64,000 nt of DNA from Waddliaceae bacterium (GTDB lineage: Bacteria > Chlamydiota > Chlamydiia > Chlamydiales > Waddliaceae): contig CAVRUH010000007.1 in the NCBI GenBank assembly GCA_963724325.1, positions 448,001 through 512,000 on the forward strand, given 5' to 3'. Below the pieces are notes generated by a model, which saw only the letters and a program-made list of their open reading frames with translations, made no database searches and was not told the origin of the DNA. Both the position numbers and the translations under genes were made by a program. Shown here piece after piece: positions 17,414 through 18,886 of this stretch (positions within the stretch are counted from its first letter, which is position 1; each line of letters opens with the position of its first letter).

Positions 17414-18886
17414 AGGAAAGGAACGGTAAAGTTTGACCCCCTAAAATTGGAGGTCATACCATGTTTCAGTCCAATGTGCTTTTCAAGGCTTATTCGCACT
17501 GTTCAGGGCTTAGAAAAAGAGCTTGGATTACGAAAGTAATCGTAATCATTCAGAAGGCAACTAATTTATTGTTGTTAGCTGAGGGAGAGGGGGCCACGGC
17601 TACTTCTTTGGGCCAACGCCCCTCCGGGGGCGGTAAAATAATCATTCGATGCCTGAAAATAATTCACCGTGCCCCTTCGGTCGAGGGGGCCACGGCTACT
17701 TCTTTGGGTAATCTCATACTAACCAATAAATATATAAAAATAAATAGAAATAAAGCCCCAAATGGGTTATCTCATTGTAGTAACCAAACCATCAAGGAGG
17801 TGTAAACCATGGGGCATAGTTCATATTTAACATATTGTATAGGAAAAGGTAAAGCATATCCTTTCGGATTTAAGTTAGATGCGGTGTTCGCAGCTGAGGA
17901 ACTTGGCAAAAAACCAGCGGCTAAAAAGTTTAAAATAGCTTTAAATACATTGAAATCTTGGATTAAAGAATTCCAAAAACATGGCAAGCAAGGCCTAATC
18001 GATAAGAGAAAGGGACCCAATTTTATTCCACATAAAATTCCTCCTGACGAGGAAGAAAGGATAGTTAGCATTCGCACGATGGCACCTTGTTTTGGCCCTA
18101 ATAGAATAAAGTTCTACTTCAATGTAAATTGTTCTGTTGGAGCTATTCGTCGGGTTATTCGATCTCATAATCTTACTAAGAAACAAAAGAAAAAGCAGGA
18201 GAAAAAAAGAGACTTAAGAGCTGTTAAGGCTAAGCGTGCATCGATGACGTATCTGCAGATGGATGTAAAATACTTAACGGACATTCCTAACTATTGGGAA
18301 CAGATAAAACCTATGGGATTACCCAGGTTCCAATATACCGTCCGTGATTCTAAGTCAGGAATGCTATTCTTGGGGTATTCTGATGAGCTATCGGAATTAA
18401 ATGCACGTACGATGATTGATCATATAATAAGCGAAATGAAGCTCGATTTACCCTTTGATATCGAGAAACTTAATGTGCAAACGGATAATGGATCTGAATT
18501 TAGCGGTCAAGCAAGGAGAGTAGAAACAGCTCCCTTTGTTCAAATGATTGAAAAGACCCATGGGGCTAATCATAATTACATAAGACCTGGTCATTGTAAT
18601 GCAAATGCGGATGTTGAATCATCACATCAAACGATTGAAGTTGAATTTTTTGACTTAATAAAGGTTAAGAATCGAGATGACTTCTTCAAAAAGATCGAGT
18701 CGTATCGGTTATATTTTAATTTCACGAGGGTGAATTTTTCTAAAGGTAAAAAAACACCGCAACAAATTTGCGCAAGTGATTGGAATATAGATGTTTCTTA
18801 TAATTTTTCCTTGATAAAAACTGTGGATTTAGATAAAATAAGTACATTCTCGTATCAACGGGGTCAATCTTTACCTGATTTTACCG
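17414..18886 (+). mobile_element. IS481-like (rve/integrase-core) insertion sequence
   Basis: Imperfect 27-bp IRs (17414-17440 vs 18860-18886, core ggtaaag.ttgacccc); 14-bp direct repeat aaaaatttataaaa at 17400-17413 and 18887-18900. Confidence 0.8.

Follow-up and report, generated by a model that had tools for sequence, protein, structure and literature searches.

Insertion sequences of the IS481 family make target-site duplications of 2-15 bp, those of ISMac4 and ISA0963-1 being 15 bp long according to PMC10045372, and their termini are given as 5'-TGT...ACA-3' in bioRxiv 2022.12.17.520857. The same preprint describes copy-out/paste-in elements (IS3, IS30, IS21, IS256 and ISKpn21) in which the joined ends build a junction promoter. 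Among phage and archaeal integrases, some are known to take forms that depend on topology: for myxophage Mx8 Int and for the archaeal 'suicidal' integrases of SSV1, pTN3 and pT26-2, the attachment site lies inside the integrase gene, which integration splits or provides with another 3' end, as reported in PMC6070905 and PMC8371274. Finally, TnGBS, ISLre2 and ISKra4, which encode Mutator-like enzymes and make 8-9-bp duplications, are targeted to promoters, with the right end of the element toward the promoter.

The stretch analysed here (the window) comprises 64,000 nucleotides of the genome of a Waddliaceae bacterium and harbours an IS481-like element of 1473 bp at 17414-18886, a boundary common to six identical copies in the genome and at which, in three of four sequencing runs, public contigs begin or end (position 17414). 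The element is bordered by 14-bp target-site duplications (17400-17413 and 18887-18900); in the six copies the duplication is 14 bp long in four, 15 bp in one and an imperfect 15 bp in one, and the target sequences are unrelated. Its forward strand carries a 27-bp left inverted repeat (IR) starting with AGG (17414-17440), a 27-bp right IR ending with CCG (18860-18886) and, from 17809 to 18886, an HTH and DDE transposase gene of 359 full codons. All six copies lie on the plus strand of their contigs, three of them on contig C1.

The transposase contains the Pfam domains HTH_32, HTH_28 and rve_3, its D152, D226 and E270 residues are conserved, and its predicted fold matches TnsB, IstA and retroviral integrases. 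An earlier note made from the sequence alone had described the element as IS481-like. This assignment holds as far as the single ORF with HTH and rve_3 DDE domains, the 14-15-bp duplication, which falls inside the family range, and the best NCBIfam match (NF033577, IS481) are concerned, but that match reaches only 143 bits against a cut-off of 224 and the termini differ, being AGG...CCG here and NGG or CGN...CCG in relatives. The element further differs from IS481 by the absence of an internal stop codon, by a coding left end and by promoter-anchored targets. Indeed, the transposase ORF reads across the right IR, one base over, and runs on to a stop codon located in host DNA (18979-18981). The same register (r=1) is found at all located right ends except those of L002, which has a 1-nt indel, and L030, which is partial. 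Among 120 homologues, 110 matched the terminal motif, and their C-terminal tails beyond it comprise 1-51 residues. The tails past the right end are random.

At the other extremity, a reading frame without a start codon, hereafter frame A, is open on the plus strand from the first base of the element (17414-17539, 41 codons, stop at 17537-17539), so that the left IR doubles as its codons 1-9. It encodes an IPC[IFM]S motif followed by a predicted helix (residues 20-37, pLDDT about 88 in the predicted structure). In eight aligned leaders, the pN/pS ratio of frame A is 0.14, as compared with 1.85 and 1.47 in the other forward frames, and variation at its third codon positions is 0.27 versus 0.06-0.08. 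Frame A is under protein-level selection, and the description of the leader as 'non-coding' in the earlier note is not borne out. The motif [DH]P-x(5-9)-C-[IFM]-[SG] followed by an amphipathic stretch was found in all 25 leaders examined, which span 40-100% transposase identity and one of which (L040) ends early; in a further copy, L052, frame A carries a stop and a frameshift. A looser motif was present in the seven distant loci examined out of ten, at 30-36% identity. When 15 of the 20 listed elements were inspected, none had a stop in frame A within the left IR, whereas the right IR, when reverse-complemented and read in the equivalent frame, contained stops in seven of them.

Searched against 1.84 billion representatives, the frame A peptide gave 25 matches, 21 of which are short ORFs with unrelated N-termini and four repetitive proteins; the N-termini that precede the peptide in public proteins come from flanking DNA. 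The element's copy of the peptide belongs to no Pfam family and gave no usable Atlas match.

The registers of frame A and of the main ORF are both invariant relative to the IR cores. We consider it probable, on the strength of these sequence comparisons, that the transposase gene is split, i.e. circularly permuted, cut at the element ends and whole only when the ends are joined; frame A would then likely be the missing C-terminus of the transposase, restored where the ends meet in a circle or tandem junction. The transposase ORF would leave the right end without a stop, and the 41 codons of the left end would become its C-terminus on joining. A linear copy would accordingly encode a truncated enzyme with a random tail, presumably sufficient for copy-out, and the circle would encode the full enzyme, which may be required for paste-in and possibly for promoter-anchored targeting. 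Several Cys and His residues of the transposase are near-invariant (C94, H251, H255, H262, C263, H273 and C321) and C17 of frame A is invariant; together they may form a metal site, which the tail would complete.

As with the att-in-gene integrases, linear and circular states would encode different enzymes. Those integrases, however, are site-specific tyrosine recombinases with an att core, whereas the present element has a DDE enzyme, IRs and a target duplication, and its joint would hold a target-derived spacer, with the consequence that the frame is not guaranteed. The likeness to copy-out/paste-in elements lies in a function restricted to the circle, with the difference that the junction would create a reading frame here instead of a promoter.

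A 14-bp spacer would set the right-left join of the element in frame. In the class of elements with 27-nt IRs, the join through the duplication is in frame in nine of twelve copies, including that at 17414-18886, and out of frame in the other three; one of the in-frame spacers contains a stop. Among copies with 28-nt IRs, none of 15 would be in frame through a spacer as long as the duplication. Spacers of 6-10 bp occur in the circles formed by elements whose duplications are 8-9 bp long (PMC3942029), and the ISKpn21 circle spacer is reported to equal the duplication (bioRxiv 2022.12.17.520857). The frame of the 28-nt class would be rescued if the spacer were measured from the IR core inside the element, or if its length varied, but not by an ISKpn21-type spacer. 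One protein, P0002, runs from the right end through five codons into nine left-IR-like codons in frame, and then diverges. The right-left junction was absent from the contigs of four runs (depth 2-6), no circle junction was found by pattern in five genomes, and neither two protein library searches nor the 120 homologues yielded a transposase-plus-tail protein: the single tail-fusion match, P0121, corresponds to the C5 copy of the element within another transposase gene. This copy, at C5:155378, lies in frame within the latter gene (IS1634-like by eye), and the host ORF ends in frame A.

Frame A could alternatively encode a separate small protein, produced from an internal or non-AUG start or by reinitiation and unfused to the transposase. 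The out-of-frame join of the 28-nt class through the duplication and the lack of a fusion protein in the libraries searched both speak for such a protein, as does the methionine that follows IPC[IF]S in many relatives, but the best-conserved residues lie upstream of this methionine, which is missing in L001, L005 and L010, and no common start codon or ribosome site was seen. Moreover, a downstream start would not require frame A to be open through the IR, where stops are avoided (0/15 versus 7/15). We thus regard a separate protein as improbable.

If the gene is indeed split, the topology of an insertion sequence switches the form of its protein, an integration-competent transposase exists only after excision, and hundreds of annotated transposases in the IS481-like group are incomplete. 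We found no report of a topology-switched DDE insertion sequence in a literature that was incomplete, with few subscription journals; the ISfinder tables may already list members of the group.

The element is inserted at a fixed position with respect to a promoter-like sequence, 27 nt upstream of the TATAAT box (17367-17372, minus strand) of a divergent host gene (16843-17337). Among 27 copies flanked by duplications and belonging to several lineages, 17 have a TAnnnT hexamer on the outward strand that starts 27 nt beyond the left duplication, and four others have it at 28 nt, against a background of 4.4% per position; these counts rely on a -10 pattern, as distinct from mapped promoters, and copies within one genome are separate insertions of kin elements. 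Promoter targeting is shared with TnGBS, ISLre2 and ISKra4, from which the element differs by its rve-type enzyme, its 14-15-bp duplications and its left end, which is the one that faces the promoter. That the tail peptide mediates this targeting is a guess; if it does, its 41 residues are a candidate for promoter-anchored, gene-sparing insertion that would be useful for integration tools. A TTAAG or TAAAG sequence occurs directly before the duplication (17385-17399 in the window, and in the left flanks of other copies) and again about 11 bp further out; this recurrence would reflect either the targeted promoter itself or a preference of the element for certain sequences.

Between frame A and the transposase gene, the leader contains the GC-rich patch to which the earlier note had drawn attention. 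GC content is 0.50 at 17500-17699, as compared with about 0.30 at 17200-17499, and the two exact 26-bp direct repeats (17587-17612 and 17683-17708, 96 bp apart) and both hairpins (17617-17632 and 17667-17695) are present as the note had stated. Comparison of homologues defined a module on the plus strand, made up of a first unit (17563-17612) composed of a conserved AATT...TTAGCTGA head and repeat 1, whose invariant core is CGGCTACT; the GC-rich inter-repeat hairpin (17617-17632); an anti-repeat, TTCACCGTGYCCCTTC (17661-17678), which can pair with either repeat; and repeat 2 (17683-17708). The conservation among homologues that the note had called for is thus found at the level of sequence: in 16 of 16 modules, CGGCTACT occurs in both repeats and TTCRCCG.G in the anti-repeat, and the core is invariant while nearby synonymous sites reach a pS of 0.64. 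The two repeats evolve in concert, within the IS481-like clade (1.4 versus 3.3 differences, a result reached by 2 of 40320 permutations) as well as across IS families (2.4 versus 9.9 differences), their variable flanks changing together.

The whole left region folds better than shuffled sequences (z of -3.2 on the plus strand and -2.2 on the minus strand). Pairing of the anti-repeat with one or the other repeat is preserved in 93% and 94% of cells in the IS481-like clade, L119 changes both sides of the pairing, and the two alternative pairings lie within about 2 kcal/mol of each other in three of eight leaders. The 17617-17632 hairpin is retained, with changed stems, in seven of the eight two-repeat leaders of this clade and is not kept in other IS families. 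The covariation that the note had proposed to look for among leaders did not rise above shuffles (170 and 181 of 500), and RNAalifold over the 16 modules gave -0.8 kcal/mol with three invariant pairs and no consensus fold across families. A stem within each repeat failed the cross-pairing test, doing no better than cross-element pairs. No intrinsic terminator was called in the leader.

In the window, only four tRNAs reach the Rfam gathering score. Four weak matches lie far below gathering, the best at 17 bits for a threshold of 70, and known RNA families (CRISPR repeats, C4, riboswitches, group II intron domains) were rejected in the absence of a gathering-score match. Resemblances noticed by eye to group II intron domain 5, to an HDV-like ribozyme and to sigma-54 or sigma-28 promoters were likewise discarded, for lack of an Rfam match or of the correct spacing. 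The repeat resembles the 16S rRNA region preceding helix 45. The best site for 16S rRNA pairing indeed lies before helix 45, but at best 6-16% of shuffles reach 8-9-nt matches and the duplex energies are no better than those of shuffled repeats; pairing with 16S rRNA was rejected, and a search for the 16S ends of other hosts found nothing. In P1, the antisense C4 units consist of like sequences flanking a complementary one. A similar arrangement is described for the phage P4 seqA-CI-seqC region (PMC4825925). The present module shows no sequence likeness to the P4 region, and differs from both in that it has no Rfam match, its complementary part comprises only 5-12 nt, and it is found in insertion sequences.

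The module occurs well beyond the IS481-like clade. Models built on the repeat block were searched in this and other genomes. In this genome, all six matches fall within the six copies of the element. The order unit 1, anti-repeat, unit 2 was found in three of five genomes searched in full, and in at least 3 of 151, at least 2 of 29, at least 7 of 73 and at least 1 of 146 genomes in overlapping sets; an exact 18-nt pattern occurred in 3 of 401 genomes, one of the occurrences being a chance match in a coding region. Viral contigs did not contain the module motif, nor did plasmids or phages contain the leader. Of the 36 module loci that were inspected, 27 sit at the 3' extremity of a transposase gene of another family and on its strand (15 IS3-type, 6 IS30, 3 ISL3, 2 IS21 and 1 ISNCY), the IS3-type carrier protein scoring 156 for a cut-off of 160. 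Two of the other nine are IS481-like leaders and seven have no same-strand transposase nearby: three of these are less than 130 bp from the edge of a contig, two are followed by an IS3-like right end, another belongs to a short IS21-like element, and the last has no explanation.

The distance between the stop codon and the first core is 36, 44, 56 and 95 nt in IS30, IS21, ISL3 and ISNCY, respectively, and the core overlaps the ORF end in IS3. In the present element, the first core lies 56 nt after the frame A stop, where a permuted gene would place it, which independently supports frame A as the true 3' end of the gene, the module then sitting 56 nt past the true stop in the joined form. The IS21 carriers have the module in the interval from istA to istB, a position that disfavours a tight terminator. 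The repeat spacings outside the IS481-like clade range from 55 to 89 and are not multiples of three. The ISL3 carriers (L142, L145 and L148) have an extra inverted unit 1 just after the module, and L143, a short element with IS21-like ends, has unit 1 and the hairpin and is cut within the anti-repeat. We did not find the module described in print, in the incomplete literature available. It is common to six IS groups, has no Rfam match and makes a cross-family control element directly testable.

Within the IS481-like clade, the module is embedded in a second ORF of 114 codons, frame B (17461-17805, plus strand), which is preceded by a GGAGG site (17449-17453), is in frame with the transposase gene and stops 3 nt before its ATG. 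This ORF, open in all eight two-repeat leaders and also in L007, L009 and L010, further contradicts the notion of a non-coding leader. In 14 of the 48 closest proteins (P0042 among them), frame B and the transposase form one continuous chain. The frame B peptide is not conserved (pN/pS 0.85-1.85), yet the frame is: repeat spacings in the clade (96, 96, 93, 84, 93, 78, 93 and 84) are all multiples of three, as are 16 of 17 alignment gaps, and re-dealt substitutions keep frame B open in 2-9% of trials per leader. The shorter leaders (45-51% identity) do not have frame B, and the distance from the frame A stop to the transposase start is mostly 51-74 nt in them. Frame B would likely serve to hold ribosomes on the stretch of RNA that separates the module from the transposase start, and so to keep the longer leader under translation. 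Within 17432-17456, the left IR core can pair with the GGAGG of frame B, and would hide the site in transcripts initiated outside the element; these pairs are kept in the eight leaders, at positions that are also constrained by coding.

Two-repeat forms are found throughout the clade above about 63% identity, and one-repeat or no-repeat forms at several tips (29 sequences, for some of which the state of the leader was deduced from the N-terminus of the protein). In G253, a single IS3 is present both as four copies with two repeats and as ten with one. Relatives that have no repeats are nevertheless multi-copy, as shown by 11 left-end matches in G253 and by the six copies of a second element in the present genome.

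We then considered the proposal of the earlier note that the two repeats and the segment between them form an RNA or DNA scaffold that regulates or guides transposition. As in the IS110 and IS1111 elements with their bridge RNA or seekRNA (described in PMC11187229), a structured-looking stretch is found in an end of the element, but the enzyme there is a DEDD recombinase whereas it is of the rve DDE type here, and the leader contains no loops that track the target or the donor end. The idea that a repeat-spacer-repeat RNA guides the DDE transposase to an end or to a target draws on the better-than-shuffled folding of the region and on one 9-nt match: as the note had pointed out, cggtaaaat (17631-17639) recurs, in reverse complement, as the outermost 9 nt of the right end. 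Chance alone would produce about 0.17 matches of this type when all 9-mers of the two IRs are taken into account, and the first two bases of cggtaaaat belong to the stem of the small hairpin. Among seven elements with both parts, only the 17414-18886 copy matches its own right-end tip at nine of nine positions; in the six relatives out of six, the inter-repeat segment matches the IR at 5-7 of 9 positions, no better than it matches the tips of other elements. Nor does the segment track the target. The longest stretch common to the leader and the six insertion sites is 6-9 nt (control mode 8), no better than with AT-matched random 64-mers, and the target duplications of the six copies are unrelated even though their leaders are identical. 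In addition, multi-copy relatives with no repeats insert with the same geometry, and the presence of the module in five other IS families, alongside unrelated transposases, shows that it is not specific to the IS481-like transposase. Together with the absence of an Rfam gathering-score match, these comparisons of IRs, targets and repeat-less relatives largely refute a guide role, which we regard as very improbable indeed. The module is most likely accessory, and not a guide.

The regulatory half of the proposal fares better. The conserved sequence, the unproven fold and the coexistence of one-repeat and no-repeat forms lead us to view the module as accessory and as acting in cis on the transcript of the transposase gene, cis regulation being the likeliest of its possible roles. 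That it acts as an RNA is a tentative assignment, to which we would give a little less than an even chance; it would most likely pause, terminate or process the transcript, with the anti-repeat pairing with either repeat.

Two other accounts of the module deserve consideration. REPs consist of a GTAG foot and an imperfect hairpin. On the minus strand, the anti-repeat and repeat 2 of the module display GTAG followed by an imperfect hairpin, a pattern half-formed for repeat 1, and the module could be a selfish or passive REP/BIME-like repeat that insertion sequences have acquired and exchanged and that is tolerated only behind transposase genes. Its greater conservation in sequence than in structure, its repeated loss, the extra inverted copy in ISL3 and the copy inside the short IS21-like element would fit this origin, which we nevertheless deem unlikely: the module is not dispersed in host DNA (all matches lie within insertion sequences, whether the six found here, the 15 of G253 or the six of G245), its strand is that of the transposase in all 27 loci at which it follows one, and its core does not vary while neighbouring synonymous sites do. 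IS3, IS30 and IS21 move through circles, and the module might be a strand-specific DNA signal of circle-forming insertion sequences, used for instance in second-strand priming or as a site for a host protein. The carriers belong to rve-type or ISL3 families, and circles are known to be used by several of these (bioRxiv 2022.12.17.520857, for the IS1202 group); moreover, the module is conserved in sequence with no significant covariation, and two direct repeats would suit a protein site. A DNA signal of this kind is however hard to reconcile with a position always directly after or overlapping the transposase stop, as opposed to a fixed distance from an end, and with the multi-copy state of relatives that have no module, and we judge it improbable as well.

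On balance, we favour as the best explanation of the whole locus a permuted transposase gene with an accessory cis module behind its true stop. A more elaborate version, which we put forward with some reserve and hold to be slightly less probable than its negation, is that of a widespread IS481-like family with a circularly permuted transposase that takes two forms, for excision and for integration, only the circle encoding the promoter-seeking integrase, together with a control module of ~150 bp behind the stop that is common to unrelated families of circle-forming insertion sequences.

Several minor observations concern the ends of these elements and their relatives. At L002:1839-1865, the 14-bp duplication comes after the right end and is itself succeeded by 13 nt that repeat the left end of the same element exactly; the flank is of low complexity, and this arrangement reflects either an insertion beside an end-like site or an assembly effect. 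L063, L064 and L066-L069 (G245, G044) consist of left ends of the IS481-like family followed by unrelated DNA, and L063 has the same target site as L010 with an end from another lineage. In L041 (41% identity), a different repeat-hairpin-repeat block, with 25-nt repeats 69 apart, occupies the same place upstream of the transposase and was not matched by the module model; L023, L026 and L043 carry other GC-rich hairpins there. The second IS481-like element of the genome, whose transposase is 44% identical, is 1829 bp long and present outside the window in six copies (C7:192462, 209048 and 374588; C1:70697, 971279 and 1080311) with 15-bp duplications. It has its own frame A and a conserved left part of 750 bp, seemingly with a divergent passenger ORF, and TTGAC often follows its right end.
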